A stretch of 32,000 nt of DNA, taken from contig JBBISB010000001.1 in the NCBI GenBank assembly GCA_037441475.1, positions 517,465-549,464 of the forward strand, in the 5' to 3' direction. The position numbers and the translations under genes are program-made. Under the pieces are notes generated by a model. The model ran no database searches, was not told where the DNA came from, and saw nothing but the letters and a program-made list of their open reading frames with translations. Position 1 is the first letter of the stretch. Every line of letters begins with the position of its first letter. The DNA comes from Candidatus Iainarchaeum sp. Its GTDB lineage: Archaea; Iainarchaeota; Iainarchaeia; Iainarchaeales; CSSED10-239. Of this stretch, positions 1 through 22,736 are shown piece after piece.

Positions 1-127
1 CCTTATCTATTAGTATATATTTCCCTATCTGTTTATCTGTTATTTTTAACCTCTTACTCAACTTATAAATAATATTTGTTGAAAGATATCTTTCTTTATA
101 GTAGTTTATAGGGAAGGTAAAAAAGTG

Positions 128-182
128 GTTTTGTTCGGCTGAATGAACAAAAACGAGTAGTTTTGTTCAACAGACTGAACAA
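128..182. promoter_or_regulatory. Two adjacent dyad-symmetric elements upstream of the ATPase gene: GTTTTGTTC-N8-GAACAAAAAC, then TTGTTCA-N6-TGAACAA
   Basis: Read directly. 128-136 pairs with 145-154 with one bulged A. 163-169 is the perfect reverse complement of 176-182. The GTTTTGTTC half-site recurs 32 bp apart (128, 160). Confidence 0.3.
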
Positions 183-213
183 TATATAAACTTTTCTATA
201 AATATAATAATAT

Positions 214-1469
214 ATGAATGAAATTATTTTTTCTAAAATTTTACTTGAAAGTAAGAAAAAAAAGAAAACATTACTTCCTTTAAACATAAAAGATATTTAT
301 TTTCAAATATTGAAAAATCTTCAAAAGACTATTATATAGGTATCTATGGTTTAAGAGGTATTGGAAAAACAGTTTTATTATTACAACTATATTCAAAATT
401 AGACGACTCAGATTCAATATATTTTTCAGCAGACTCTACTTATTTATCTTTGTTTCCTTTATATGATATTTTAAAATTTTTAATAAATAAAAAATATAAA
501 AACATTTTTATAGATGAAATTACTTATAAAGAAAATTGGGTTCAAGATATAAAAACTATTTTTGATGAAGAAAAAATAAATATTTATTTTACAAGCTCTT
601 CTTCTATAAACATACAAAAAGGAGCTGATCTTTCAAGAAGAGTTTTATTATTTGAATTAAAACCAGCATCCTTAAGAGAATATATAAATATTAAGTATGA
701 TAAAGATATTCCTGTAATAACTTTTAATGATATAATAGATTCTAACAAAAGAAAACAAATAACTTCAAATTATGTCCTTTATTATAATTATTATGAAGAA
801 TATTTAAAATTTGGAGGTTTCTTATATTCTAAAGATAATGATCTTATTAGTTATTATAAATCTATAGATAATATTTTTAAAAAAATACTTTATTCTGATT
901 TAAATAACATAAGGAGAATAGATCCTAAAATAGAAACCGATATTTTAAATATATTCTATTTACTATCCAATTCTTCTCCTTTACAGTTAAGTTATTCAAA
1001 TTTAGCTAAATCATTAAATAGTATAAGTAAAAACACCTTAATTTCAATTATTAATGATTTAGAAAAAATTAATTTAATTAAACAATTAAAACCATGTTCT
1101 TTTGGTTATGCTTTAATTAGAAGTGATTCTAAAATATTTTTAAATCTTCCTTTTAGATATTTCTTTTCAAGTCTATTAAATAAGGTGCCAAACACTGGTT
1201 CATTAAGAGAAGATTTTTTTGTAAGTGCTTTATCTCCTGATTGTTATATTAAAACCGGTAAAGATAAGTCTGCTGATTTTATGAAAAGCAATATTATTTT
1301 CGAAATTGGTGGAAAAAATAAAAAAGATAATCAAAAAGCAGATTTTATTGTTTCAGACGATCTTGAGTTTTCTGAAAAAAAATACCTTTATTTTTATTTG
1401 GGTTTATTTACTAAAGAAATACTTTATTATTTTGGAGTAAATAGTATAGTACTTAAGGGTCTAAAATAA
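214..1469 (+). pseudogene. COG1373-type AAA+ ATPase (DUF4143 family), frameshifted near its 5' end
   Basis: ATG at 214 opens a 41-codon ORF (MNEIIFSKILL...NLQKTII*) that stops at 337-339. The body frame is open from 255 and reads KDYYIGIYGLRGIGKTVLLLQ (Walker A) in frame with the listed ORF 450..1469. A 1-nt frame change is needed between about 323 and 338. Overall similarity in layout to the intact paralog at 20745..22067. Confidence 0.6.
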
Positions 1470-1581
1470 ATTAATTTTTAAAAAATAACCCTAAAACAAT
1501 CTACTTTAAAAATATTATCTTCTTATATTTCTTATAGTTATATTAATTATATTTAAATTAAAAAAGAGTTGTTTATAAAAT

Positions 1582-1950
1582 ATGTTTCTAAAAAATGAAA
1601 AAGCACAAATCTCTTTAGAGTTTTTAATAATCTTAGGCGTAATTATCTTAGCTGTAATTATTTTTGTAACCTATTACTTAGGAATAATAAATAAAAACCT
1701 AGATAAAAGCACAGAAGCAGCAAATGCTTCTCAAATAAACCTTAATATTGAAAGAGAAATAGTTCTTCCAACAACAACCTCTCCATCTACATCAATAGCT
1801 ACTTGTGGTAATGGAACAATTGATGCTATGGAAGTATGTGATACTGCGCCTGGCACAGGCACTTTTCCTGCAGGCCTAACTTGCGCAAATATTCCTGGTC
1901 CTGGTAATAATTTAAATTGTAATAGTTGTGCCACTATTACTTGTAGCTGA
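1582..1950 (+). CDS. Archaeal type IV pilin-like protein (class III signal peptide) with a C-terminal six-cysteine module
   Basis: N-terminus MFLKNEKA/QISLEFLIILGVIILAVIIF matches the prepilin peptidase site plus QxSxEF hydrophobic helix pattern of archaeal pilins. C-terminus CGNGTIDAMEVCD...C...CNSC...C resembles the CGNG-x-E-x-CD cysteine-rich repeat. This part is visibly more GC-rich than its surroundings. Confidence 0.65.
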   Translation: MFLKNEKAQISLEFLIILGVIILAVIIFVTYYLGIINKNLDKSTEAANASQINLNIEREIVLPTTTSPSTSIATCGNGTIDAMEVCDTAPGTGTFPAGLTCANIPGPGNNLNCNSCATITCS

Positions 1951-1968
1951 TTTTTAAAAAACCTCCTC

Positions 1969-1996
1969 TTAAACCCCCTAAACATAAGGGGTTTAA
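1969..1996 (+). terminator. Stem-loop between convergent genes (TTAAACCCC-N10-GGGGTTTAA)
   Basis: Perfect 9-bp inverted repeat starting 19 nt after the pilin stop codon. A role in termination is inferred only. Confidence 0.3.
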
Positions 1997-2057
1997 CAAA
2001 CCGGCTAGTGGAACGTCAGGTTTAAGTAGTTAATCTAAAAGTTTTTTTTTAAAAACT

Positions 2058-2399
2058 TTAGACCTTTATCTTCCTTAAAACATTATCGACTTCTTTAATA
2101 TCTATTTCTCTTTTATCAATCTCACTCTTTGATAAAACCTTACTTTCTATAATCTTTTCATAAAAATCTTTATAGCTAAGGCCTGCAAGCTTAGCTGCCT
2201 CTGATAAAGTAGAATTTGTTTTTTCAAGAAGCTCTACAGCTTTTTTAAACCTATATTCTAAAACTCCCTTCTCAATAATACTTCTAAGAAGTTCAGATTC
2301 ACTTATCTTTGTTTCCTTAACCATATAGTTTATATTTTTTATAGTGGAATCAGATAATCTTATTGTTTTTGATTTTAACTTATATTCCATATTTTTCAC
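2058..2399 (-). CDS. Small DNA-binding antitoxin-like protein (RHH-like N-terminus, UPF0175-like HTH C-terminus)
   Basis: TIRLSDSTIKNINYMVKETKISESELLRSIIEKG looks like a ribbon-helix-helix. LSEAAKLAGLSYKDFYEKI resembles the UPF0175 antitoxin helix-turn-helix. No cognate toxin ORF is adjacent. Confidence 0.4.
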   Translation of the reverse strand: MKNMEYKLKSKTIRLSDSTIKNINYMVKETKISESELLRSIIEKGVLEYRFKKAVELLEKTNSTLSEAAKLAGLSYKDFYEKIIESKVLSKSEIDKREIDIKEVDNVLRKIKV

Positions 2400-2479
2400 A
2401 TTTTTTTAAATATTCTTTTCCAATATAAATATATTTTTGTTTTATTTTGTTTGTTAAAAGATTTAAGTAATTATTTGCA

Positions 2480-3215
2480 TTATCTAAAGTTATTTTTTAT
2501 TATTTCTTCACAAATTATTTTAAAATCAATCCTATTTTTTTTAAATATAAAGTGATTTGTAGAGTTATTATAATATTTTATTTTTAGAGGGTCATTTATT
2601 ATTTGTTTTAATTTTAAGGTTACTTTTTCATTTATGCTAAGTCTTTTTATTTTTAGTATGTGATATATATCGTAAATATCTTTTCCTTCATCCCTATTTA
2701 GAAACGCATCTATTTTTTGAAAAAAAAGTTCTTCTAAAGAATATACTTTATATAGAGATGTTATGTTGCTTGTAAATCCTGGATTTATAATTTTTAATTC
2801 TGCAGAATGCATTTTTTATTGTTTATTCTAAATTCTAATCTTATTTTGTATTTTTCATTAAATTCATTAATATATTGTACAGCATACCTTATTGTTTTAT
2901 TCATTATTCTAGGATTACTTAAAATATACTCGTTTAGTTCTTTTTTAATTATTTTGTATATTTCTTCTTTAATTGTATTTATTTCTTTATAGTATATATG
3001 TCAAAATCAATATCTTCTGAAAATCTTTTATTTTCTGAAAAATAAACTCTATTTAATGCCGTGCCTCCTTTTAAAATAATATTTTCTATTTTTCCTTCTA
3101 ATTTTTTAAATATTTTAGAAAGTTCTATATCTTTCATAATATAGTTTATAGATAAACCTGTTTCTAAAGCCTTTTTTCTAATTTCCTTTACTGCAGTCAT
3201 TTTTAATTCCACCAA
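2480..3215 (-). pseudogene. AbiEii-type nucleotidyltransferase toxin (type IV TA), split over three reading frames
   Basis: The N-terminal fragment (2979..3215) carries LKGGTALNRVYFSENKRFSEDIDFD, the AbiEii/DUF1814 GGTAL...R.S.DxDF signature. A second frame is open 3000..2797 (HIYYKEINTIKEEIYKII...). The C-terminal fragment (2480..2812) has EELFFQKIDAFLNRDEGKDIYDIYHI, typical of the AbiEii C-terminal domain. The summed length of about 245 aa fits the family. Confidence 0.65.
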
Positions 3216-3985
3216 CTAATGATGTTTTCTTTTCCAAAATTATCTTTTATTTTCCAATCAGATAAGTATTTGGATTTTCTTTGTTTGCTGTTAAAAAGAT
3301 AAGTTTTTGATTTTTCTTGTTCTTTAAAAAAATCAATTACTTTTAAGGGTATTTTTATGTTTGTTTCTTTATTAATTAAATCTAAGATATAGCCTGTTAT
3401 CTGTTTTTGTCTTTTACTTTTTATTTCTTTATTTAATTTAATAAATTCATCCCAGTTTATTTTATTAGATATTTCGTATATAGCTTTAGAAAGAGTAGGA
3501 TACCCTCCTGAATATTCTATTTTTGAAAAACAATCTAAAATTGTTTTTTCAAGAGTAGATATTGGTATTTCTTCTTTAATAATGTAATTATTGAAATTTT
3601 TCGTATTAATATATTTTATTGTAATTTCGTTTATTTTAATCTCTTTAGATTTATTATTGGTTGCTATAAATATAGTTTCTGGAAGATAATCAATTAGTCC
3701 ATAATTATATAGTGCAGTAGAATATGCAATATACCCAAAGTTATATGTTATTGCAATTTTTTGAATTTCTTTATAACTATATTCTTGATTTAATAGATAT
3801 GTTCCTTTACTTATTCTTAGGATATATTTTTTATCAACTAAATTTTTTAAAAATCTGTTAATCTTATTTGTATTTAAGTCTGGATAAACTTGATGTATTT
3901 CCTTGGTTGTAAAAAGAGTAGTGATGTCTTTTATAGTGGTGTATATTTCTAGTTCGCCTTTAGATAGGTGGTTATTATTTACCAT
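3203..3985 (-). CDS. AbiEi-like antitoxin / transcriptional regulator
   Basis: It sits immediately upstream of the AbiEii fragment and overlaps it by 13 nt. The N-terminal wHTH-like region and the motif GYIAYSTALYNYGLIDYLPETIFIAT are typical of AbiEi proteins. Confidence 0.6.
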   Translation of the reverse strand: MVNNNHLSKGELEIYTTIKDITTLFTTKEIHQVYPDLNTNKINRFLKNLVDKKYILRISKGTYLLNQEYSYKEIQKIAITYNFGYIAYSTALYNYGLIDYLPETIFIATNNKSKEIKINEITIKYINTKNFNNYIIKEEIPISTLEKTILDCFSKIEYSGGYPTLSKAIYEISNKINWDEFIKLNKEIKSKRQKQITGYILDLINKETNIKIPLKVIDFFKEQEKSKTYLFNSKQRKSKYLSDWKIKDNFGKENIISWWN

Positions 3986-4114
3986 ATAATGTAATTATGT
4001 TGCATTAAGTTTAAATAATTAACCATTTACAATAATTAATATTTTTAACCCTTTATTTAGAAAAATAATAAAACCTAATTTTTTATTTGTTAACAAGATT
4101 AATTAAAAAGAAAC

Positions 4115-6436
4115 CTACTCTTCCGCAACTCTATTTTCTTTTATCCTCTTAATAATCCTTGGAGCGAACTTTTCAATATACCATTTCTTCCAAATCTCAA
4201 ACACTTCATCATAGTTTGTCTTACCGTGCTCATCTAAATATTCTTCCTTGGTTATTAAAAGCTTGTTATGAGTAAAAACAGTATTTTCAGCTTCCAAAAG
4301 CTCCATGACCTGGTTTTCCTGAGCAAAGTCTACTTGGAACTTCTTTTCCTTTGCCCTTAAGGTGATGTTATCCCATATCTCTTCAATAGTCATACCAGTA
4401 AGTCTTGATATCTTAGAGAAGATCTCAGAGTCTTTTAAGGCATCTTCATTAAGCACCAAGGTATCCTTTGAAGCATCATACTCCATTAGGTTTAAAATAC
4501 CCCCTTCAACCTCAGGATCAGTACTCCAATGTTTTCTAACCTCTGTTATCTGAACAACCCTTCTATGACTCTTAAGAGAGCCTTTAAACCTAATAGGCTT
4601 TGCAACAACAATAATGTCTGTTGCCTTAAATGAGGTGGTAGGTACATCTAAATCATTAACTACTCTGTCCCATACAGCATAAGCTGAGTCTGCGTGTATA
4701 GTTCCCATTACTACATTCCCTGCAGCACCAACTCTCATGGCTTCATACAGTACTTTTGCTTCAACAGATCTTACTTCTCCTACAATTAAAGCAGAATCAC
4801 CAAGTCTTAAAGCTGTTCTTAAGGCATCCTCTGGCTTCATTTCTGTGTTTGCATCCTCTCTAGTTCCACCAATAGCTGATCTTGTTTTTAATCTTTGGGC
4901 ATTAAAACCAATATCCTTCATATACATTACAGGAAGTTCTAAAGTGTCTTCTTGAACAATAATTCTTGCATTTTGTAAAATTTCAAGCATTAAGGCTGTC
5001 ATTAAAGAGGTTTTTCCTGCACCACGTGATCCTGCAACCAAAAGAGTGGAGTTGTTGTCTATAAAGAAGCTTAACATTCCAGCAGCTAAAGGGTTAAGTG
5101 ATTTAACATTTATAAGTTGAGGTAAGGTCCATGGTGTATCTTTATGTAACCTAAAAGCAAAGGCTATACCGTCTGTTGCAAGGGGCCTACCAATAACAGC
5201 TATCCTTGTGTTTAAATCTGGCATATCAAAGTCTAAGACAGGGTGTGCATCATCAAAAGGTCTTCCTGACATTGCTCTTATTTTTCCAACAAAGCTTTCT
5301 GCATCTTTTTCAGGATAATGAACATTTGTTTGACATTGTCCATATTTTGAGTGCACTAAGTATATTGGTTTTGCACCTAATGGTGAATCAAGATAAACAT
5401 CTGTTACTTGTTTGTCTGAAAGTAATAGTTCTAAAACACCATATCCAATAGTGTATCTTGTAACAATCTCTGATAGTGAATAAACATCATCAGGGGATAG
5501 TTCTATGTTATATTTTTTTGCAATATCAATGATTGTTGATTGATATATTCTTTGGAAATATTTTCTTGTACTCTCTCCAGTTGTTAAAGTTACTTTTCCT
5601 GGTTTATAGTTTGCTACAGTATCTTTTGTTTTTGTTAAAACAAAGTAGTGATCAGGGGAAAGAGTATACTCTGGAGGGTTAATTAAATATATATATTCTA
5701 CTTTTTCTGGATGTTTAAATATCTGTACAGAGGTGTTTAATACCTGGTATTCGTCAACAAATTCTAGAGTATCCATGTCTTTAAAGGTTAATTTTGATCC
5801 TATAAAAGAAGGCTTTATCTCTACTTCAAAGATTGTTCTATAGATATCTGTAACTTCAGATAGGTCTTTTACCTTCATTAAAAGCGGTTTTATTTTTCTT
5901 ATAAACTCTGTTTTTTCATACATCTCTTTTAGTTTTAAAAGATGTTTTACGTTTTGTGTAAAGCAAGGCTCGCATGGTTGTCCTCTTCTCTCTTGCCCTC
6001 TGTTTTTTGTATTTTCAATTTCTTTTAATAAACTAATGTATGAGGCTATAGGGTCATAGGCAAGAAGCTCTCTTGCAAACTTAATAATGTTATTATGTCT
6101 TTCTGGATAACATTCATCACAATCAATGTCTTTAAGGCCTAAGTGTTGTGACACCCAGACAGCTCTGTTTTCAAACTCTAAAAGTAGGTTTACCATTTCC
6201 TTAAGGTACTTGGTTTGTTCTTCATTATAGTTTCTTTCATAAACTTCAGCTAGGATGATTTCATCAGCATCAACAGTTTCTAGAACTTTCATTGCATGGA
6301 ACCTACATCTAGGGTCTTCAGCTATGGAGGTGTTGTAAGGGCAGTTTCTACAATCAAAAACTAGTTTTTTCTTATTTCCTTCAGTTGTTACTGCATAATC
6401 TCCAACTGTGAAATTTCCTATCTTCATACCTATCAA
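4115..6436 (-). CDS. Type II/IV secretion-family ATPase (FlaI/PilB/VirB11 superfamily), probable archaeal type IV pilus assembly ATPase with a long Cys-rich N-terminal extension
   Basis: Walker A is VAGSRGAGKTSLM, Walker B/Asp box is RIIVQEDTLEL, followed by GEVRSVEA and His box GTIHADSA. The N-terminal ~230 aa contain CRNCPYN...CRFH, CDECYPERH and CEPC. Confidence 0.85.
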   Translation of the reverse strand: MIGMKIGNFTVGDYAVTTEGNKKKLVFDCRNCPYNTSIAEDPRCRFHAMKVLETVDADEIILAEVYERNYNEEQTKYLKEMVNLLLEFENRAVWVSQHLGLKDIDCDECYPERHNNIIKFARELLAYDPIASYISLLKEIENTKNRGQERRGQPCEPCFTQNVKHLLKLKEMYEKTEFIRKIKPLLMKVKDLSEVTDIYRTIFEVEIKPSFIGSKLTFKDMDTLEFVDEYQVLNTSVQIFKHPEKVEYIYLINPPEYTLSPDHYFVLTKTKDTVANYKPGKVTLTTGESTRKYFQRIYQSTIIDIAKKYNIELSPDDVYSLSEIVTRYTIGYGVLELLLSDKQVTDVYLDSPLGAKPIYLVHSKYGQCQTNVHYPEKDAESFVGKIRAMSGRPFDDAHPVLDFDMPDLNTRIAVIGRPLATDGIAFAFRLHKDTPWTLPQLINVKSLNPLAAGMLSFFIDNNSTLLVAGSRGAGKTSLMTALMLEILQNARIIVQEDTLELPVMYMKDIGFNAQRLKTRSAIGGTREDANTEMKPEDALRTALRLGDSALIVGEVRSVEAKVLYEAMRVGAAGNVVMGTIHADSAYAVWDRVVNDLDVPTTSFKATDIIVVAKPIRFKGSLKSHRRVVQITEVRKHWSTDPEVEGGILNLMEYDASKDTLVLNEDALKDSEIFSKISRLTGMTIEEIWDNITLRAKEKKFQVDFAQENQVMELLEAENTVFTHNKLLITKEEYLDEHGKTNYDEVFEIWKKWYIEKFAPRIIKRIKENRVAEE

Positions 6437-6795
6437 GTAGCCTTTATTTTCTAAAATATTATATTAATAGTAGGTAAATAGTTTATTTAAATGTTATTAT
6501 TTTCTTTTAATAGTGCTTCTCTTTTTGTTAAAGGTTTTTTTAAAAGTAAAGGAAGGAGAGTAGGTAAATGTTATTTTAATTATCAAAGGGTATTTTTTTA
6601 AAAAATGGTTTACTTTCTCTTTTATCCTGGACAAACCAATTTTTTAAATGTCCAGGGTAAGGCAGTCTTTTCTTTTACAAAGCTTTTTTCTTAGATTTTA
6701 TTTTTTTAAAGCCTTTTCTAAATAATGTAAGAAAAATACCTTATTTCTTACGTTTTTACGTAAGCTTTTAAGTTAACTTTCCTTTTTATTACTTA

Positions 6796-6825
6796 AAAGA
6801 TATCTTTTTGATATCTTTAAGATAT
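6796..6825. promoter_or_regulatory. Candidate operator for the RHH antitoxin: AAGATATC-N5-GATATCTT palindrome plus a third AAGATAT half-site, followed by a TATA-like box
   Basis: Perfect 9-bp inverted repeat 6796-6804 / 6810-6818. AAGATAT recurs at 6819-6825. ATATATTTAAATAT (6822-6835) lies about 25 nt before the ATG at 6857, consistent with a leaderless transcript. Confidence 0.35.
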
Positions 6826-6856
6826 ATTTAAATATGTTTTGTTTAATAAGTAATAT

Positions 6857-7141
6857 ATGGATGAATTTATAGTTAGGTTAAAAGGAAAGCCAAAAGAATA
6901 CATGGACTCTCTTTTAAGTAAAGGTTATTTTAGTAATAAAAACGAAATAGTTAGGCATGGTATTTTAGAGCTTGCAAATAAATATGATATCAAGGATAAT
7001 TATATCTATGATAAAGAAGAACTTACAAAGGTTGGTAAGGTAATTGAAAGGGAATTAAGGGATATTAAGAAAAAGAAAAGCAAGCTTTATTCTGAAAAGG
7101 ATTTCTTAAAGTTATTTCCTCATCTTAAAGATATTAAATAG
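6857..7141 (+). CDS. Ribbon-helix-helix (CopG/Arc-like) antitoxin
   Basis: N-terminal beta-strand plus two helices (FIVRLKGKPKEYMDSLLSKGYFSNKNEIVRHGILEL). It lies 9 nt upstream of a RelE/ParE-like ORF. Confidence 0.55.
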   Translation: MDEFIVRLKGKPKEYMDSLLSKGYFSNKNEIVRHGILELANKYDIKDNYIYDKEELTKVGKVIERELRDIKKKKSKLYSEKDFLKLFPHLKDIK

Positions 7142-7150
7142 TGGTATTAT

Positions 7151-7414
7151 TTGTATGATTATAGTTTAACTGAATCATTTATAAAAGATTTTAAAAAACT
7201 AGACTCTTCTTTACAAAAGATTATTTTTAAAAAAATTAATTATCTAGTGCAAGAGCAAATTACTAGAAAACACTTAAAATATGGTTTGCCTTATTTTGTT
7301 TTAAAAATTAATATTTCTTCAAGGCTTGTTTATGTAATTAAAGAAAATTCATTGATATTTGTGAAGGTTTTTAAAAATCAAAAGGACTATGAAAACTGGT
7401 TTTCTTCTTTATAA
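7151..7414 (+). CDS. RelE/ParE-superfamily toxin-like protein
   Basis: 87 aa. The N-terminal helix SFIKDFKKLDSSLQKIIFKKINYL and the following beta-rich part match the RelE/ParE pattern. TTG start. Position directly after an RHH gene. Confidence 0.5.
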   Translation: MYDYSLTESFIKDFKKLDSSLQKIIFKKINYLVQEQITRKHLKYGLPYFVLKINISSRLVYVIKENSLIFVKVFKNQKDYENWFSSL

Positions 7415-7672
7415 CTTTTTAATAACATCTTCATAGAAACCCTTTGCTATATACCCTAAGCAAGGAGAGGATATATACTCTTTAATCTCATTTATTTTTA
7501 TCCACTTGTAGTTTACTCCTTTCTTAGTAATAGTTTCTTCTAAAGAATCTGTTGTAGCATAATAATACTCGGTATGCATTTTTTTAAAAACATTCTCTTC
7601 TTTTTCAAACCAGTTATGACATTCTCCAATCTTTTTTTTAAGCAAGGTAATATTCTTAATACCAGTGCTCAC
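7409..7672 (-). CDS. Hypothetical protein, possibly the C-terminal piece of a degenerate Nudix-like domain continued from the upstream ORF
   Basis: GTG start overlapping the stop of 7669..8217. Its frame is open 8 codons further upstream (RYLQEIEVSTGI, loosely like the RE-U-x-EE-x-GU end of a Nudix box). The upstream ORF ends with ARGGLVYN...LLITED...WSYPKNLKDKVEG, loosely like the start of a Nudix fold. Weak by-eye evidence only. Confidence 0.3.
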   Translation of the reverse strand: MSTGIKNITLLKKKIGECHNWFEKEENVFKKMHTEYYYATTDSLEETITKKGVNYKWIKINEIKEYISSPCLGYIAKGFYEDVIKKL

Positions 7673-8533
7673 TTCAATTTCTTGGAGATATCTTTACCCT
7701 CTACCTTGTCTTTAAGGTTTTTAGGGTATGACCAAAAAGAACAGCTTGCCTTTTCATCTTCAGTTATAAGTAGTTTCTTAGTTTTGGTGTTATAGACAAG
7801 TCCCCCTCTAGCGTAACCTAAAATAACCTTTAATTTCTTATTACTCTCATATATCTTCTTAAGATCAGTTTTTTCTAAAATCTCTTCAAACTTAAGTATC
7901 TGATTTAAGATTATTTCTTTATCTATGTTGTTATAGTCTTTTATCTTAAGTAACCTGTCCTCTACTTCCTTTTCATTAACCTTTAATTGCCTAAGTAGCC
8001 TTGCATATTTGTAAAGGTTATGATACATTCTATATTTATTATCTTCAAAATAACTTTCTAAAAAATCAATTCTTATTTTTGAAAAAACACTGGTTGTTTC
8101 AAAACTAAACTCAAAGTAACTTTTTTTCTTTAAAATTTCTAATAAATCTTCTTCAAGTCTATTTCCATATATAAAAAAACTGTTTAATATAAAGTCATAA
8201 AGGTAAGGGTAGAACATATCTGTTGTAATATTTTTAAAGTTGTTTTTCTCAACATTGTTTATCTTAAACTCTATTTTAATGTTGTTTTCCTTAGATATTT
8301 TTTTTTATCTTAGAGAGTACTTCTATTTCTTTTTTTAAAATTTCTTTCTTTTTTGTAAACGCCATTATGTTAATATCACTTTCTTTAGGGGTAATCTCTC
8401 CTCTAGCAAAGGAACCATGTATGTATACTGCTTTTATAAAAGAGTATTTTCTACTATTAAACTCTTCTTTTAAGTAGTTTGCAAGCTTATAATAGCTTTC
8501 TAAGTTTTTATCTATAATTTCCATGCTCTTCAT
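7669..8533 (-). pseudogene. Pol-beta superfamily nucleotidyltransferase (MNT/KNTase-like: NTase core plus helical C-terminal domain) interrupted at an A9 run
   Basis: ORF 8291..8533 carries HGSFARGEITPKESDINIMAF (G[S]-x9-12-DxD-type motif, here D-I-N). The frame of ORF 7669..8217 stays open upstream to 8304. Removing one A from the A9 run (8298-8306) joins both into a single ~287-aa ORF. Confidence 0.5.
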
Positions 8534-8750
8534 ACCTTTGTTTTAAAGATATGTTGTCTATATATTTTTTAAAGGTTTTGCTTTTTTTTAACAACCGTTG
8601 TTTTGTTTTCCATATATTTCTCTCTTAATTATTTTGTTTTTATCTTAAGTTCTATTTATAAGGTTTTTTTGATAATAAATAATATTAATCATATAACTTT
8701 TAGAATATTTTCTTATTTTAAAAAACGACGATCTAACTAAGGTGATAAAA

Positions 8751-16943: not shown

Positions 16944-17211
16944 TTATATACTTTTCTAAACCATAATTATATCATAAATATGATGAGTAACTAAAAAGTG
17001 AATAGTAAAAAATAAAAAATAATTAAAAAAATGTTTAATAAAAATGAAAACCTTAAATCTCCTATTCTAGAAGCATTTAACATTATTCCTTTCAAATAAA
17101 AACTATTTTTAATAAATAAATTTAATTACTTTTTAAAATTCCTTATACCTTGCTTATTATATAAAAAAAGAAAAAATAACAAAAAAATATAAAAAAAAGA
17201 GTGAATAAAAT

Positions 17212-17402
17212 ATGAATGGTACTGTTAAATTCTACAACTTCAAGAAAAATTTTGGCTTATAACTGGAGAAGATGGTAAAGATTACTTTGTCCATAGTTCA
17301 GGAATAGCTAACAACGAAAGTATAAAGGATGGTATGCCTGTTAAATTCGATGTTACTGAAGATGATAAAGGTCAAAAAGCTATAAATGTTAAAAAAGCTT
17401 AA
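17212..17402 (+). pseudogene. Cold-shock domain protein, inactivated by a 1-nt deletion
   Basis: It is 191 nt versus 192 nt for the intact copy. GGC TTA TAA (stop 17260-17262) aligns with GGT TTC ATA in the intact paralog. The downstream frame still reads ITGEDGKDYFVHSSGIANNESIKDGMPVKFDVTEDDKGQKAINVKKA*. Confidence 0.75.
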
Positions 17403-17836
17403 GTTTATTTATAAATTAATACTTAAATAACAAATTTAGTTTTATACTTTACATTAAAACAAAAAATTAATCTTTTTTCCCTTAAAAAGAAGAAAGCTTA
17501 ATTTTTTTTCTATTTTTACTGTTCCTTAAATTTTTATTGTTAGTTATCTATTTTTTTCTTAAAACAATTATCTTTATATACTTTTCTTAACTATAATATT
17601 ATTACAAATATAGTAAGATTACGTTTAAAAAAGAAAACATAAATTTAGTTAAAAAAACATTTAATAAAAATAAAAAACCATTAAATCTCTTTTATTATTT
17701 TAAAAAAAGAAGCATTTAACATCATTCCTTACAAAAAACCCTATTTTTAATAAATAAAATTAAGTTTATACTTCTTCTCTAAAGGTACTTATTATATAAA
17801 AAAACAAAAAAAATATAAAAAAAGAGTGAATAAAAT

Positions 17837-18028
17837 ATGAATGGTACTGTTAAATTCTATAATTTTAAAAAAAACTTTGGTTTCATAACTGGTGAGGACG
17901 GAAAAGATTACTTCGTTCATAGTACAGGAATAGCAAACGACCAAATGATTAAAGACGGAATGCCTGTAACTTTTGATGTTACACAAGATGATAAAGGACA
18001 AAAAGCTATTAACGTTAAAAAAATGTAA
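17837..18028 (+). CDS. csp: Cold-shock protein (CspA-family cold-shock domain)
   Basis: MNGTVKFYNFKKNFGFITGEDGKDYFVHSTGI contains RNP1-like (KNFGFI) and RNP2-like (YFVH) motifs. 63 aa. GAGTGA lies 9 nt upstream of the ATG. Confidence 0.85.
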   Translation: MNGTVKFYNFKKNFGFITGEDGKDYFVHSTGIANDQMIKDGMPVTFDVTQDDKGQKAINVKKM

Positions 18029-18548
18029 TTTTTTAATAGAATAATGCTTTTTTAAAGCTTTTAAGCTTTCCATAATTTTAAAAAAAGTCTTTCTTTTAAA
18101 AAGAGGGCTTTTTTTAACTTTATTTCTACCTTATTTTAAAAATTACTACTTTATTTTTAATTCACGCTCTGTATAATATACATAATTTTTTTGAACAAAC
18201 ATATATATACTTTTCGTTAACTTTAAAAAATTAACCCTCAAAAGCTCGCTTTTAGCTATTTTTTACCACTTTTCCTTCATTTTCTAAACTAAATCAAATT
18301 ATAATGGTTTTACCTTATAATTATTTTATAATTTCTGCTTTTTTGATAAAAAACTTTACAGTTATTTTATATAACAAAAAAGAGGTTAGTGAAAGAAGAA
18401 AGAAAAAGTACTCTTAAATTAATAAGAAAAGCTTAATTTCTTTTTTCGGCAACGACCTCTCCCTCCCCTTTATGCTTTATATAGGAAAATAAAGCTAATA
18501 TATATAACATTAATAAATTTTTAAAAAAAACAAAAGTGGAATGATTAA

Positions 18549-20687
18549 ATGGTTGACATAGATCTTGAAAGAGAACTTGATAGTTTTGATATAAAAGAAA
18601 CAAAGAGCATATTAGTTGATGAGTATGTTGATCTCTTTGTAGAATTCTTTGAAGAAATATACAAAAAAGAAATAGAACAGCTTGCCTCAAACTATCCAAC
18701 TGAAAAATCCCTAGAAATAGATTACAAAAAATTAGAAGACTTTGATCTAAATCTAGCAGAAAGACTTCTCTCTTCTCCAAACATTATCTTTGAAGCATCA
18801 AACGCAGCTATTAAAAAAATAGATCTAGGTATCCTGGATTCAGAAGTTGAAGATAACTTTGAACCTATGGTTAGGTTTTTCAACCTACCAGAAGAATACA
18901 GAGTTTCAATAAGAGAAGTAGGTTCTGAACATTTAACAGATCTTGTCTCTGTTGAAGGAACAATAAGAGCAATTACAGAAAAATTAGAAAAATTAACTCT
19001 TTCTCACTTCACATGTAAAAAATGTGGAACCCCAGTTATCTTAATGCAAAAAACACAACAGCTTCTAAAACCAGTAATGTGTAATGAATGTAAATCAAGA
19101 GACTTTGATCTAGACTTAGAACAATCAAAATTCATTGATTATCAAAAAATACAAATACAAGAACCTTTAGAAAACCTAAAAGGTTCAGAACAAGCAAGTA
19201 ACATAGATGTCTACCTTTCAGATGACTTAGTTAACAAATGTTCTGCAGGGGATAAAATAATTGTAACTGGTGTCTTAAAGTTAAGACCTACAAAAGGAGA
19301 CATGAACATCTTTTCAAGATACTTAGTTGCAAACCACATAGAAAGAGTAGATCAAGAGTATGAAGAGTTAAAAATATCTTTTGAAGAAGAACAAGAGATT
19401 AAAGCTCTTTCAAAAAAAGAAAATATCTATGAAATGCTTTCAAAATCAGTTGCTCCTAATATCTTCGGACATGAAGTTGTAAAGGAAGCAGTTACCTTAC
19501 AGATGTTTGGTGGTGTAAAAAAAGAAATTGCAAAACAAAAGTTTAGAGGTAACATACATGTTCTTTTAGTAGGTGATCCTTCTACTGGTAAGTCCAAGAT
19601 ACTAGAGTATTCAAACCTTTTAGCTCCAAAAAGTATATACGTTGCAGGAAAGACAGTTTCTGGTGCTGGTTTAACAGTCTCTGCTGTAAAAGATGAATAT
19701 GGAGAGGGTGGTTGGACATTAAAAGCTGGTGCTATCATTTTAGCAAGCGGTGGAATTGCAATGATTGATGAGTTTGATAAGATAGGTGCAGATGATAGGT
19801 CTTCTCTTCACGAAGCAATGGCTCAATCCACAGTTTCTGTTTCAAAAGCTGGTCTTTACAGTAAATTCAGAGCCGATACTTCAGTTCTTGCAGCAGCAAA
19901 TCCAAAGTACAACAGGTTTGATCCTTATAAAAATCCATTAGAGCAAATAGATCTTCCTTTCTCTCTTCTTTCAAGATTTGATTTATACTTTGTAATTCCA
20001 GATCTTTTAGATAGACAGATGGACACTGATATTGCAAAACATGTTTTAAAAACACAGGCTCTTGCAGAAAAGCTTTCTGGAAGAGATAAGACAATAACAA
20101 AAGAGGAGCTTTCAAGTATTGAAAAGCAAATCCTTCCAGCAATTGATCCTAATCTTTTTAAAAAGTTTGTAGCTTATGCTCGTCAGAACATAAAACCTGT
20201 TCTTTCTCAAGAGGCTTCAGATATTATCTTAAAATACTATGTTGAATTAAGAGACATGGGAAGAAAGAATAGAAGCTTTACTGCAACTCCAAGACAGCTT
20301 GAGGGTTTTATAAGACTTTCAGAAGCAAGTGCAAAAATAAAACTTAAAAAAACAATTGAAGCAAGTGATGCTCAAAGAGCAATCAGGATCTTTAAGACTT
20401 CCTTAGAGCAAGTTGCAATGGATAAAGAGACTGGTAAGATCGATATTGATATTTTGCAGACTGGTCAATCACAGAGTGAGAGAAACTTTATAAAAATTGT
20501 TTTAAAATATTTAAAAGATCTTTCATCAAAAGACCCAATAGCTACAAAAGACTTTATAGAGTTCACAACTAAAGAAGGGCATGATAAAGAAAAGGTTATG
20601 GAAGCAATCTCTAAGCTTAAGAAGATTGGGGATATCTATGAACCAAGGTCTGGTCTTTTAAAAGCCACTGAACCTGATGCCTTTTAA
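18549..20687 (+). CDS. mcm: Minichromosome maintenance (MCM) replicative helicase
   Basis: Zn finger CKKCG...CNEC, Walker A GDPSTGKSK, Walker B MIDEFDK, arginine finger SRFDL, and a C-terminal wH region. 712 aa. Confidence 0.95.
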   Translation: MVDIDLERELDSFDIKETKSILVDEYVDLFVEFFEEIYKKEIEQLASNYPTEKSLEIDYKKLEDFDLNLAERLLSSPNIIFEASNAAIKKIDLGILDSEVEDNFEPMVRFFNLPEEYRVSIREVGSEHLTDLVSVEGTIRAITEKLEKLTLSHFTCKKCGTPVILMQKTQQLLKPVMCNECKSRDFDLDLEQSKFIDYQKIQIQEPLENLKGSEQASNIDVYLSDDLVNKCSAGDKIIVTGVLKLRPTKGDMNIFSRYLVANHIERVDQEYEELKISFEEEQEIKALSKKENIYEMLSKSVAPNIFGHEVVKEAVTLQMFGGVKKEIAKQKFRGNIHVLLVGDPSTGKSKILEYSNLLAPKSIYVAGKTVSGAGLTVSAVKDEYGEGGWTLKAGAIILASGGIAMIDEFDKIGADDRSSLHEAMAQSTVSVSKAGLYSKFRADTSVLAAANPKYNRFDPYKNPLEQIDLPFSLLSRFDLYFVIPDLLDRQMDTDIAKHVLKTQALAEKLSGRDKTITKEELSSIEKQILPAIDPNLFKKFVAYARQNIKPVLSQEASDIILKYYVELRDMGRKNRSFTATPRQLEGFIRLSEASAKIKLKKTIEASDAQRAIRIFKTSLEQVAMDKETGKIDIDILQTGQSQSERNFIKIVLKYLKDLSSKDPIATKDFIEFTTKEGHDKEKVMEAISKLKKIGDIYEPRSGLLKATEPDAF

Positions 20688-20693
20688 GGTTTT
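20667..20693 (+). repeat. Left copy of a 27-bp direct repeat (ACTGAACCTGATGCCTTTTAAGGTTTT), covering the last 6 codons and stop of mcm
   Basis: 26/27 identical to 22115-22141. Confidence 0.85.
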
Positions 20694-20723
20694 CTTTAAG
20701 ATTTTAAATTTATTTTTTATTAT

Positions 20724-20773
20724 GGATTCTAAATCCTAATTTAATTGTTTTTATGTGGATTCCAAATCCACAT
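20724..20773. promoter_or_regulatory. Two GGATT-N3-AATCC palindromes (GGATTCTAAATCC; ATGTGGATT-CCA-AATCCACAT) upstream of the ATPase gene
   Basis: Read directly. The second has perfect 9-bp arms (20753-20761 / 20765-20773). ATGGATT recurs at the probable start codon (20805). Confidence 0.35.
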
Positions 20774-22067
20774 ATTTAAAAACCTTTTTGTATATATAAT
20801 TAATATGGATTATATGTTATTAAAGCAAGTTATTATTAATCAAAATATTTTTTTTAAAATCAAACCAGTAGGTTATATAAGAGATAAATTACAATTAATT
20901 AAAAAAGATATTAATACACCTACAATTATTGTTATTACTGGGCACAGAAGAGTTGGAAAATCAACCTTATTTTTACAAATTGCAAATTTTTTTTATAAAG
21001 ATAATTATTATTATTTAGATTTTTCAGATCCTGTTTTAAGAAACATAAATATTGAAGATTTTTTAAAAATTGAAGAAATTTTTTTACAAGAATTTAAAAA
21101 AAGAAAAGCTTTTTTCTTTGATGAGATTCAAGGTGTGCCTGGTTGGAATTTATTTGTAAATCAATTAAGAGAAAAAGGGTATAAATGTTATATAACATGG
21201 TCTAATGCAGAACTATTATCTAAAGAGATTTCAACCTATCTAACTGGAAGACATAAGGATTATGAATTATATCCGTTTTCTTTTAAAGAATACTTATCGT
21301 TTAATAATATAGTTAAAGAACAGTTTACTACATCTAAAAATGCACAACTGTTATCTTATTTTGATACTTATTTAAATGCAGGTGGCTTTCCTGAAATTGT
21401 TGTTTATAATCAAAATGAATTGTTAAAAGAAATTTATAAAGATATAATATTAAAAGATGTTGCATTAAGATGGGATTTAAAAAATATATCTGAACTTGAA
21501 GATTTATCTTTTTATTTATTATCAAACGCCACTCAAGAATATAATTATAATTCTTTAAAAAAAAAAGTTAATATTAAAGATGCAAAAACAATTAAACAAT
21601 ATATTAATTATCTGTGTAAAACATATATGTTTTTTGAAGTATCTCAATTTGATTTTTCATTAAATAAACAAAGAAAACGTAATAAAAAGATATATATTTT
21701 AGATAATGGATTTTTAACACAAGTAGGTTACTCTTTTTCTATAGGTAAAAGTAGATATTTAGAAAATCTTGTGTTTATGGAATTAAAAATGAGAAATTTA
21801 GAAGTTTATTTTTATAAAGATAATTCTAATTTAGAATGTGATTTTTTAATTGTTGAAAATAAACAAGTAAAAGATGCTTTTCAAGTTTGTTTTTCAGTAG
21901 ATAAAAAAGAAACTGAAGATAGAGAAGTTAATGGTCTTCTTTCTGCTTTAAAAGCTTATAATTTAAAAAAAGGCACTATTATTACTTATAATTTTGAAAA
22001 AGAAATTAAAATCAATGGATTTATAGTTAATTTTATTCCAGCCTTTAAATGGTTATTAGATAAATGA
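20745..22067 (+). CDS. COG1373-type AAA+ ATPase with DUF4143 region and C-terminal PD-(D/E)xK-like motif
   Basis: Walker A ITGHRRVGKSTL, Walker B FFFDEIQ, and C-terminal NLECDFLIVENK (E-x-D...E-x-K-like). The probable true start is ATG 20805 (MDYMLLKQ). Confidence 0.75.
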   Translation: MFLCGFQIHIFKNLFVYIINMDYMLLKQVIINQNIFFKIKPVGYIRDKLQLIKKDINTPTIIVITGHRRVGKSTLFLQIANFFYKDNYYYLDFSDPVLRNINIEDFLKIEEIFLQEFKKRKAFFFDEIQGVPGWNLFVNQLREKGYKCYITWSNAELLSKEISTYLTGRHKDYELYPFSFKEYLSFNNIVKEQFTTSKNAQLLSYFDTYLNAGGFPEIVVYNQNELLKEIYKDIILKDVALRWDLKNISELEDLSFYLLSNATQEYNYNSLKKKVNIKDAKTIKQYINYLCKTYMFFEVSQFDFSLNKQRKRNKKIYILDNGFLTQVGYSFSIGKSRYLENLVFMELKMRNLEVYFYKDNSNLECDFLIVENKQVKDAFQVCFSVDKKETEDREVNGLLSALKAYNLKKGTIITYNFEKEIKINGFIVNFIPAFKWLLDK

Positions 22068-22114
22068 TCTTAAATTAATATTTTTAATTTTTTAAACCTT
22101 ACTTATTTAAGTAA

Positions 22115-22141
22115 ACTGAACCAGATGCCTTTTAAGGTTTT
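22115..22141 (+). repeat. Right copy of the 27-bp direct repeat (ACTGAACCAGATGCCTTTTAAGGTTTT)
   Basis: There is a single difference from the left copy, and it is a synonymous CCT/CCA change when read in the mcm frame (TEPDAF*). Confidence 0.85.
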
Positions 22142-22143
22142 AT

Positions 22144-22176
22144 AAAAGGTTTTTTAAAACCTTTTAATCTTTTTTT
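22144..22176 (+). terminator. Hairpin (AAAAGGTTT / AAACCTTTT) followed by a T7 run; likely the ancestral mcm terminator
   Basis: A 9-bp perfect stem 22144-22152 / 22157-22165, then T7 at 22170-22176, directly after the right repeat. Confidence 0.4.
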
Positions 22177-22205
22177 ATTGTATATAATATAAAAATGATC
22201 TGTCT

Positions 22206-22736
22206 ATGATTACCTATAAAAATTATTCTTCAAAAAAACTTTTTGATTTAATACATAATTATTCTTACTTAAAAGAAATTTATAAAGTCAAGTTTAATAC
22301 TAGTAGTGTTCCTGCCATTTATTCTCAAGATATAAAAGATGTTCTTTTTAGAAATTATCCTAACACACATATTTTTTTAGCCTTAAATGAAAATACTCCT
22401 GTTGCTTTTCTTAACGGAAGTTATAATAAAAACAATAATTGTTTTACAATAGAGGCTGTTTTTGCATCTAAGAGATTAAGTCCAGCTGAGCAAGAATTAA
22501 TTAAAGGTAAATTAATGTTAAGAGCAATATCTCATGCCAGAGTTAAAGAAAAAACAGTTAATTTTGCCCCTAGTGTTTTTCTTTCAAAAGAAATAAAAGA
22601 TATTTTTAAAAAAATACATACCAGAAAAATAGATAGCAAAAGATTAACCTATGTTCCAGATAAAAAATTTCTATCTACAAAAGAAAGTTTTTCTATTTTT
22701 AAAAAAGATAAAGTTAAAACTTTAAAAAAGAAATAA
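22206..22736 (+). CDS. Hypothetical protein, weakly GNAT-acetyltransferase-like, with a Lys-rich tail
   Basis: Paralogous to the next ORF (shared MIxYK, ENxxVxFLxGxxNxNN, FxSK blocks). The GNAT assignment rests on the beta4-alphaA-like region only. Confidence 0.3.
   Translation: MITYKNYSSKKLFDLIHNYSYLKEIYKVKFNTSSVPAIYSQDIKDVLFRNYPNTHIFLALNENTPVAFLNGSYNKNNNCFTIEAVFASKRLSPAEQELIKGKLMLRAISHARVKEKTVNFAPSVFLSKEIKDIFKKIHTRKIDSKRLTYVPDKKFLSTKESFSIFKKDKVKTLKKK

Follow-up and report, generated by a model that had tools for sequence, protein, structure and literature searches.

The cis-mobilizable elements (CIMEs) of streptococci are integrated units that are flanked by attachment (att) sites and lack recombination genes. 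Phage 21 and the element e14 insert in the 3′ end of icd and bring a replacement 3′ end for that gene. Such elements are tens of kilobases long and have a tyrosine integrase of their own. Terminal inverted repeats, Cas1, and a polymerase are found in casposons, which make duplications of 14–15 bp. DPANN archaea have tiny genomes in which few mobile elements have been recognised and classical defence systems are scarce. Here, we describe a 32,000-nucleotide stretch of DNA (hereafter the window) from Candidatus Iainarchaeum sp. (assembly GCA_037441475.1, contig JBBISB010000001.1, positions 517,465 to 549,464), in which one gene for an AAA_14/DUF4143 ATPase lies directly behind mcm, the gene for the replicative helicase, between two copies of a 27-bp direct repeat. 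We propose, with a probability of roughly 0.5, that the ATPase gene is a non-autonomous single-gene cassette at a hot spot at the mcm 3′ end, inserted via a single crossover by an enzyme acting in trans. The host would be a Forterrea-like (Iainarchaeota, DPANN) archaeon, and the cassette appears to have its own operator-controlled promoter.

The 27-mer ACTGAACCTGATGCCTTTTAAGGTTTT and its second copy (Table 1) are identical at 26 of 27 positions. The sole mismatch, T to A at repeat position 9, changes CCT to CCA and is synonymous in the mcm frame. With up to three mismatches allowed, the 32 kb contain no other match, and 100 dinucleotide-preserving shuffles produced none. No further copies that would make the 27-mer a dispersed repeat were found in the window, in the loci of relatives, or in IMG/VR. 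An ungapped extension of the repeat reaches 39 nt at 87% identity. A gapped alignment of the two copies is longer (20667–20721 and 22115–22179, about 55–65 nt); the added part is low-complexity and uncertain and is not relied on. The layout is identical in a 671-kb NCBI contig of a metagenome-assembled genome (MAG) and in two Logan assemblies from separate runs. Because three independent assemblies have the same layout, it is not an assembly artefact. Only one real gene, of 420 aa, lies between the repeat copies. A preliminary description of this DNA had claimed a non-random 27-bp repeat that duplicates the 3′ end of mcm with one synonymous change and encloses a single gene, and these claims are upheld.

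Relatives of the window were gathered by an MCM search and comprise Candidatus Forterrea multitransposorum and allied Iainarchaeota/Diapherotrites MAGs (loci numbered L and a three-digit number). The ancestral gene order is mcm, one or two GNAT-like genes, signal-peptide peptidase, and eIF2-beta. All four outgroup lineages (75% MCM identity) have this order, with mcm directly before the GNAT-like gene and with neither hairpin nor cassette. Empty sites, in which the mcm stop codon is followed by a hairpin and then by the homologue of the gene that starts at 22206 in the window, were found in L046, L047/48, L049, L006/L022, and L007. For example, the mcm TAA in L007 is followed by AAAAAGGTTTTAAAAAACCTTTT, a T-run, and the GNAT-like gene. 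The nearest relative of the window, L046 (MCM 97% identical in amino acid and 91% in nucleotide sequence), is also empty and has GTTTTAAAGAGGAAGGTTTTAAAAAACCTTTT directly after the mcm TAG. For the window itself, an empty site would read ...AAAGCCACTGAACCWGATGCCTTTTAAGGTTTTATAAAAGGTTTTTTAAAACC, and the junction of a circle would read ...CTTACTTATTTAAGTAA-ACTGAACCWGATGCCTTTTAAGGTTTT-CTTTAAGATTTTAAATTT. Comparison with sister and outgroup genomes identifies the cassette as inserted DNA; the insertion into the mcm 3′ end that had been claimed is thus real, and the empty site that was to be looked for does exist.

Only the right repeat copy precedes the hairpin (10-bp stem, 22143–22166) and its seven T residues (22170–22176). 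A single copy of the hairpin motif is present in the 32-kb window. In relatives, the motif is found directly 3′ of mcm at the empty sites of L007, L046, L047, and L049, and it lies 3′ of the cargo in L168 and L005. Because it is unique in the window and kept after mcm in the ingroup, this hairpin is the native mcm terminator, displaced beyond the insert, as first described but with a stem of 10 bp. The corresponding hairpin in L047 (2296–2340) has GGATTT/AAATCC in place of GGTTTT/AAAACC in the window, a compensatory difference that was seen by eye. The hairpin is decayed in L006 and absent in the outgroups with 75% identity, and its folding z-score (−0.87) is not significant on its own.

The right repeat copy has ACT GAA ... 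GCC, as does the window's own mcm, whereas L046, L004, and L006 have ACA GAG ... GCT. Between lineages, mcm has diverged by about 30% at third codon positions. A displaced copy that is still identical at 26 of 27 positions and has the window-specific synonymous states points to a recent event in the window lineage, and the insertion is evidently young by this comparison. L040 has a partly decayed duplication (TAGTTTTTCTTTTTTTAAAAAGATTAAA and TAATTTTAGTTTTTTTAAAAATTAAA) that spans about −6 to +25 around the mcm stop codon (p ~0.02), and L168 is the empty-site equivalent for this duplication. The L040 block and the window block (−21 to +6) overlap in the stop codon region.

The cassette is also found directly behind mcm in L004/L012/L021, L013–L018, and L040. 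Neighbour-joining trees were built for MCM and for the ATPase, the latter rooted on relatives with 57–69% identity. In the MCM tree, the sister of each occupied lineage is empty, namely L046 for the window (97% bootstrap support), L006 for L004/L012 (100%), and L007 for L013 (99%). A single gain would need at least six precise losses, compared with three or four gains in total, such that repeated gain is more parsimonious than one gain followed by losses. In addition, the ATPase tree groups the window with L040 and L013 (89%) and places L012 outside, whereas in the MCM tree L013 falls outside the window/L012 clade (96–100%). In L040, the mcm 3′ end belongs to the window clade (81–86% identity versus 70–73%), yet the ATPase is 90% identical to that of L013. 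The conflict between the two trees and the mismatch in L040 show that the cassette moved between lineages, always landing at one spot. Taken together, these patterns indicate at least three gains of the cassette at the mcm 3′ spot. A sliding comparison found no clear switch that would mark an imported mcm tract in the window or in L013. The alternative of a single ancient insertion that descended vertically and was precisely lost several times, with the repeat kept by chance or by gene conversion, is highly improbable. It would account for the constant position of the cassette and for the ATPase nucleotide identity between lineages (84–87%), which is in the range of mcm (81–87%). However, besides the number of losses and the tree conflict, it has to accommodate an empty nearest relative and a non-coding right copy that has hardly changed while mcm third codon positions diverged.

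Genes other than the ATPase occupy the same site. In L168, just a 200-aa gene lies between mcm and the hairpin, and the ATPase is absent. The left arm of this second type of cassette (TTTTAG and a T-run) is located beside mcm in L168; in L040 and L013, it lies to the right of the ATPase. This recurrence suggests serial accretion with the newest unit adjoining mcm. L013–L018 have the ATPase and genes of 355 and 198 aa before the GNAT-like gene. In L005/L023 and L167, the ATPase is replaced by a Bro-N-like gene, a cysteine-rich protein with a class-III signal, and an M6-like peptidase. Since unrelated cargo is found at the same spot without the ATPase, the specificity belongs to the site and not to the ATPase. 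As for the details of these loci (L005 8140–13160, L023, and L167 4624–5088), the Bro-N-like gene has an internal stop (phrog_15286, 8e-66), the M6-like peptidase has 801 aa, and in L005 the GNAT-like genes are missing and a run of N is present. A second variable spot lies a few kilobases downstream, between signal-peptide peptidase and eIF2-beta (L012 8329–10068; L047 4555–5162). Some lineages have MazE/PemK and UPF0175/DUF3368 pairs there, and the window has a 132-aa open reading frame (ORF).

No integrase or transposase was found among the genes examined at about 20 mcm 3′ loci. In the window, neither the cassette nor the other ORFs that were scanned or Pfam-annotated yielded a recombinase. 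The reported absence of integrase, transposase, and Cas1 genes therefore stands for this insert, whose sole gene encodes the AAA_14/DUF4143 protein, and for the scanned and annotated ORFs around it. One explanation for an att-like arrangement of this kind is that a larger, integrase-bearing element or provirus once occupied the mcm 3′ end and that deletion of its integrase left only attL, one cargo gene, and attR, which are now immobile. The form of the repeat is classic for 3′-end integration with regeneration of the target. The varied cargo of the site, which includes a Bro-N-like gene that matches a phage family, and the extra genes beside the ATPase in L013 and L040 also agree with such an origin. 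Nevertheless, four ATPase lineages have equally tight boundaries, and deletion would have to trim the element to the same single gene every time, with no integrase left at any of the loci examined. Moreover, the 200-aa gene that stands alone in L168 suggests that the genes act as separate cassettes, and the ATPase has no close relatives on IMG/VR viral contigs, where only members with 27–34% identity were found and the 27-mer is absent. We therefore consider a remnant of a larger element quite unlikely.

Exchange between relatives may have contributed to the distribution of the cassette. The flanks of L004 (occupied) and L006 (empty) are 97% identical, but the junctions of the two differ much more, and no excess divergence was seen in the adjacent mcm. 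This pattern fits old occupied and empty alleles that were swapped by homologous recombination, which is documented in Forterrea populations and shapes them (PMC5905446). The cassette may accordingly be thought to have no dedicated mobility and to be a flexible-genome islet that is passed on by homologous recombination in its flanks, the repeat in the window being a by-product of one homology-anchored illegitimate join. That most occupied lineages lack repeats also speaks for this explanation. On the other hand, the transfer to L013 crossed clades with mcm 3′ ends of only about 70% identity and left no imported tract in the mcm end of L013, and the right flanks of donor-type and recipient-type loci are unlike. 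Duplications centred on the same stop-codon region in two lineages and at least three gains at exactly one intergenic position are also difficult to explain by flank exchange. On balance, this explanation is unlikely as the full account.

For the cassette gene, both Pfam domains score above their gathering cut-offs (AAA_14: 1.8e-34, 118.9 bits, cut-off 27; DUF4143: 1.7e-18, 67.3 bits, cut-off 28.1). The PADLOC profile of PDC-S01 (PDLC04787) matches the full length of the protein (residues 24–419, 2.5e-102). These hidden Markov model results agree with the COG1373/DUF4143 family that had been named. In NCBIfam, neither the ATPase nor the 176-aa gene downstream of the cassette matched a named family, and the ATPase has no sequence relatives in PDB. 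PDC-S01 is among the commonest candidate defence genes, with validation of the defence activity of the candidate pending, and single-gene defence candidates such as this one are enriched in DPANN (PMC12988326). An AlphaFold model of the ATPase, which was built on 41 homologues, has a predicted local distance difference test score (pLDDT) of 90.9. The nearest solved folds found by Foldseek are the STAND/AAA+ proteins CED-4, RFC, Orc1/Cdc6, and Avs.

In this model, the secondary-structure elements of the last 110 residues follow the order seen in the restriction-endonuclease fold (alpha-beta-beta-beta-alpha-beta), and the likeness concerns this order only. These elements (helix 310–329, strands 333–338, 344–351, and 354–361, helix 368–384, and strand 389–394) are predicted with pLDDT >90. 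DUF4143/COG1373 has been listed among the PD-(D/E)xK families, with function unknown (PMC3424549). Across the 41 homologues, E320, E344, D346, Q360, R373, and E374 are invariant in the nuclease-like domain. While D346 is thus retained, the E-x-K motif is replaced by an invariant Q360-V-C. Based on their conservation, E320, E344, R373, and E374 could substitute for the missing catalytic residues. The PD-(D/E)xK-like C-terminus proposed earlier is thus matched in fold order, but its catalytic motif is atypical.

The window has a second member of this family (Table 1), which is open from 255 to 1469 apart from the frameshift. A second copy had been reported as decayed; the copy exists, but a single frameshift does not amount to heavy decay. 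This gene is located in a toxin-antitoxin and defence island (1–8600). The island also contains an RHH/UPF0175-like gene (2058–2399), fragments of AbiEii (2480–2812) and AbiEi (3203–3985), a ParE-like toxin (7151–7414), and an MNT-type nucleotidyltransferase (8291–8533), and a 773-aa T2SSE-type ATPase (4115–6436) lies amid these genes.

Because the ATPase is the sole gene in the insert and its nuclease-like domain has six invariant residues, the protein itself could be suspected of cutting the target and driving its own insertion, either in a homing-like manner or by transposition with a long, variable duplication. A single nuclease-like gene that some genomes have and others lack, at one intergenic site flanked by conserved genes, resembles a free-standing homing endonuclease gene, but homing does not predict a 27-bp duplication. 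Among 22 distinct distant family members (27–34% identity, on IMG/VR contigs), three have significant flanking repeats, one of them ambiguous, compared with none of 59 other genes of at least 300 aa at the same loci. Two extra ATPases in L061 were set aside from these controls, which are mostly phage core genes and not other accessory genes. This excess of flanking repeats is suggestive but weak. A good counterpart of the window is L059 (5615–7640), in which the 3′ end of a DUF4314 gene and its terminator are present in three direct copies (duplicated stretch of 134–167 nt) with the ATPase between copies 1 and 2 and a GmrSD gene adjoining. L067 has hairpin-like flanking repeats of 39 nt. In L061 (2598–8017; equivalent to L087), 5′ fragments of a Metallophos gene separate three different AAA_14/DUF4143 genes, and the intact Metallophos gene comes last. 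However, the ATPase and Metallophos (calcineurin-like phosphoesterase) genes form a conserved adjacent pair in 14 IMG/VR loci (L089–L102), such that duplicated modules with truncated partners are likelier in L061 than a triple target duplication. These pairs hint at a two-gene ATPase-phosphoesterase system. Empty sites for the phage-like loci L059 and L061 were not found, as INPHARED gave no match and a search of IMG/VR with the L059 flank protein returned the same contigs only.

Several observations speak against self-mobilisation. Unrelated cargo uses the mcm site without the ATPase, 19 of the 22 distant loci are free of repeats, as are the S-layer/MJ0538 loci, the L061 array has the likelier explanation given above, and the canonical E-x-K is replaced by Q-V-C. 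We know of no precedent for a self-mobilising single-gene ATPase element. We consider it unlikely that the ATPase drives its own movement, as the preliminary description had thought possible, and equally unlikely that COG1373/PDC-S01 genes in general are self-inserting elements that duplicate tens to more than 100 bp of a neighbour's end and terminator. The check for flanking duplications at other COG1373 genes thus gave a mixed outcome, with repeats at the three distant loci and none at the three S-layer/MJ0538 loci discussed below, and flanking duplication is not shown to be a general mark of the family. What stands of the minimal mobile cassette first suggested is a non-autonomous unit with repeated gain at one site; a drive by the COG1373 protein or by the palindromes near the left end does not.

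ATPase relatives with 59–69% identity are found at another conserved position, with an S-layer gene on one side and an MJ0538-family gene on the other. In L019, L041, and L042–L045, these relatives are convergent with the MJ0538-family gene and near the S-layer gene. In L041–L045, the stop codons are 0–2 nt apart, and a second AAA_14 gene is nearby in L042, L043, and L045. Every locus of this ATPase subfamily has a pair of GGATT-N3-AATCC boxes before the TTTAAAAA box and the ATG, and the pairs are located about 30–80 nt upstream of the ATG at mcm loci and S-layer/MJ0538 loci alike. These palindromes had been noted near the left end of the interval between the repeats. As termini of an element they are ruled out, because they are promoter-proximal and also present at non-mcm, non-mobile loci. 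The paired palindromes probably bind the protein's own winged-helix domain and would thus be operators for autoregulation. The second window copy has a TGTTC-N8-GAACA pair with the same layout and a different sequence, which suggests that each subfamily may have its own operator sequence. In the distant member L059, three AAATATAGCAGTT repeats are located upstream of the ATPase.

The route that we favour for the window is a Campbell-type event. A circular or episomal copy of the cassette would share a short identical stretch with the mcm 3′ end, and one reciprocal crossover between episome and chromosome, at or just after the mcm stop codon, would leave the common 27 bp on both sides and push the native terminator to the far end. 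The enzyme in trans may be a site-specific recombinase encoded elsewhere or the host homologous recombination machinery acting on short homology. Later, homologous recombination in the flanks may have swapped occupied and empty alleles among close relatives. Several results weigh against this scenario. L004/L012 and L013 have no significant flanking repeat. The duplicated stretch differs between the window and L040, which agrees with a crossover at a fixed point only when the identity in the flanks is taken as incidental. No circular form, no attP (searched as a 20-mer in IMG/VR), and no helper recombinase (among the scanned ORFs of the window) was seen. The best inverted symmetry of the 27-mer (7 of 11 in an 11-7-11 arrangement) is reached by 47% of random windows, and 27 bp is short for RadA-type recombination.

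Two other routes were considered and rejected. Insertion by an insertion sequence, transposon, or miniature inverted-repeat transposable element does not fit, given that there is no transposase, that no pair among the 25 longest inverted repeats listed joins both cassette ends, and that the duplication is 27 bp. To our knowledge, this is longer than any transposase-type target duplication. A Xer/dif event as in integrative mobile elements exploiting Xer (IMEX) is not supported, as an 11-6-11 arrangement gives 4 of 11 complementary positions and the best arrangement is at the chance level.

The features of the locus are listed in Table 1. For the 47-nt spacer on the right side of the ATPase gene, a search for homologues found none. 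Upstream of mcm, the region of a cold-shock-domain gene is doubled (17181–17407 and 17806–18045), and both parts match a single copy in L004/L005; L167 has two cold-shock-domain genes. The 1.6-kb region before mcm is strongly AT-rich (16–24% GC).

Table 1. Features of the mcm 3′ locus and of the second family copy in the 32-kb window (window coordinates).
Feature	Position	Strand	Basis or remark
Two TGTTC-N8-GAACA palindromes upstream of the second family copy	132..181	.	
Second, divergent AAA_14/DUF4143 gene, one frameshift near 322–326	214..1469	+	Pfam AAA_14 1.9e-11; PDC-S01 5.5e-16; reading frames
mcm, replicative helicase, 712 aa, target gene	18549..20687	+	Pfam MCM 2.7e-81, MCM_OB, MCM_lid; translation ends TEPDAF*
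Left 27-bp repeat copy: last 6 mcm codons, stop, and GGTTTT	20667..20693	+	
Cassette left arm, AT-rich, weakly like a degenerate terminator	20694..20723	+	Gapped alignment; homologous to L040 left arm
Operator-like palindrome 1, GGATTCTAAATCC	20724..20736	.	Sequence; kept in all subfamily loci
Operator-like palindrome 2, ATGTGGATTCCAAATCCACAT, abutting the TTTAAAAA box about 30 nt before ATG	20753..20773	.	Putative promoter role, from position
AAA_14 + DUF4143 ATPase, 420 aa, predicted C-terminal restriction-endonuclease-like domain, PDC-S01	20805..22067	+	
47-nt spacer, unique to window lineage; small TTACTT/AAGTAA hairpin at 22099–22114	22068..22114	+	
Right 27-bp repeat copy (CCA variant), displaced non-coding copy of mcm 3′ end	22115..22141	+	
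Native mcm terminator, 10-bp stem AAAAGGTTTT/AAAACCTTTT, then T7	22143..22176	+	Fold; unique in window; found at relatives' sites
Downstream host gene, 176 aa, paralogue-like relative of the next GNAT gene; right flank of the site	22206..22736	+	tblastn synteny

The locus is a base-resolved example of the gain of a single candidate defence gene in a DPANN archaeon. In addition, it defines the 3′ end of an essential gene as a hot spot for which sister lineages have alleles that are occupied, empty, or filled with other cargo. With a fresh target duplication and no recombinase in cis, the movement of single defence genes becomes a directly testable question. If a host enzyme or the ATPase itself proves responsible, the known routes by which defence genes spread would be extended. 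Should self-insertion be true, the family would represent a new class of recombinase-free mobile element, which would explain its patchy, multi-copy distribution.

Compared with known systems, the cassette is like CIMEs in that its bordering direct repeats duplicate a host gene's 3′ end, no integrase is present in cis, units accrete in tandem, and relatives have empty sites. It differs from them in having a single gene, a DPANN host, and a repeat with no more inverted symmetry than random windows, and no helper element or integrase was found among the ORFs scanned in the window. As with phage 21 and e14, the last codons of the target are duplicated with synonymous differences, the target gene stays intact, and the native terminator is displaced, but the window insert is only 1.4 kb long and has one gene. 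IMEX likewise lack their own recombinase, use host Xer at dif, and have flanking repeats of about 28 bp; the window site, however, is not dif-like and overlaps coding sequence, whereas archaeal dif sites are non-coding and located at the terminus (PMC2958812). The archaeal setting, the insertion at the 3′ end of a conserved gene, and the target duplication are reminiscent of casposons, from which the insert differs in having one AAA_14/DUF4143 gene only and no Cas1, polymerase, or terminal inverted repeats. In gene content, the window ATPase is like PDC-S01 (COG1373), which it matches over its full length: both have an ATPase fused to a PD-(D/E)xK-like domain, and PDC-S01 is common in DPANN (PMC12988326). 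Finally, defence-gene hot spots and morons also have variable cargo between conserved genes, presence and absence among relatives, and their own promoters. The junction in the window is, in contrast, resolved to the base and displays a target duplication, which suggests a specific recombination event rather than mere variability. The closest known counterparts of this locus are integrase-less, att-flanked cis-mobilizable elements together with defence-gene hot spots.

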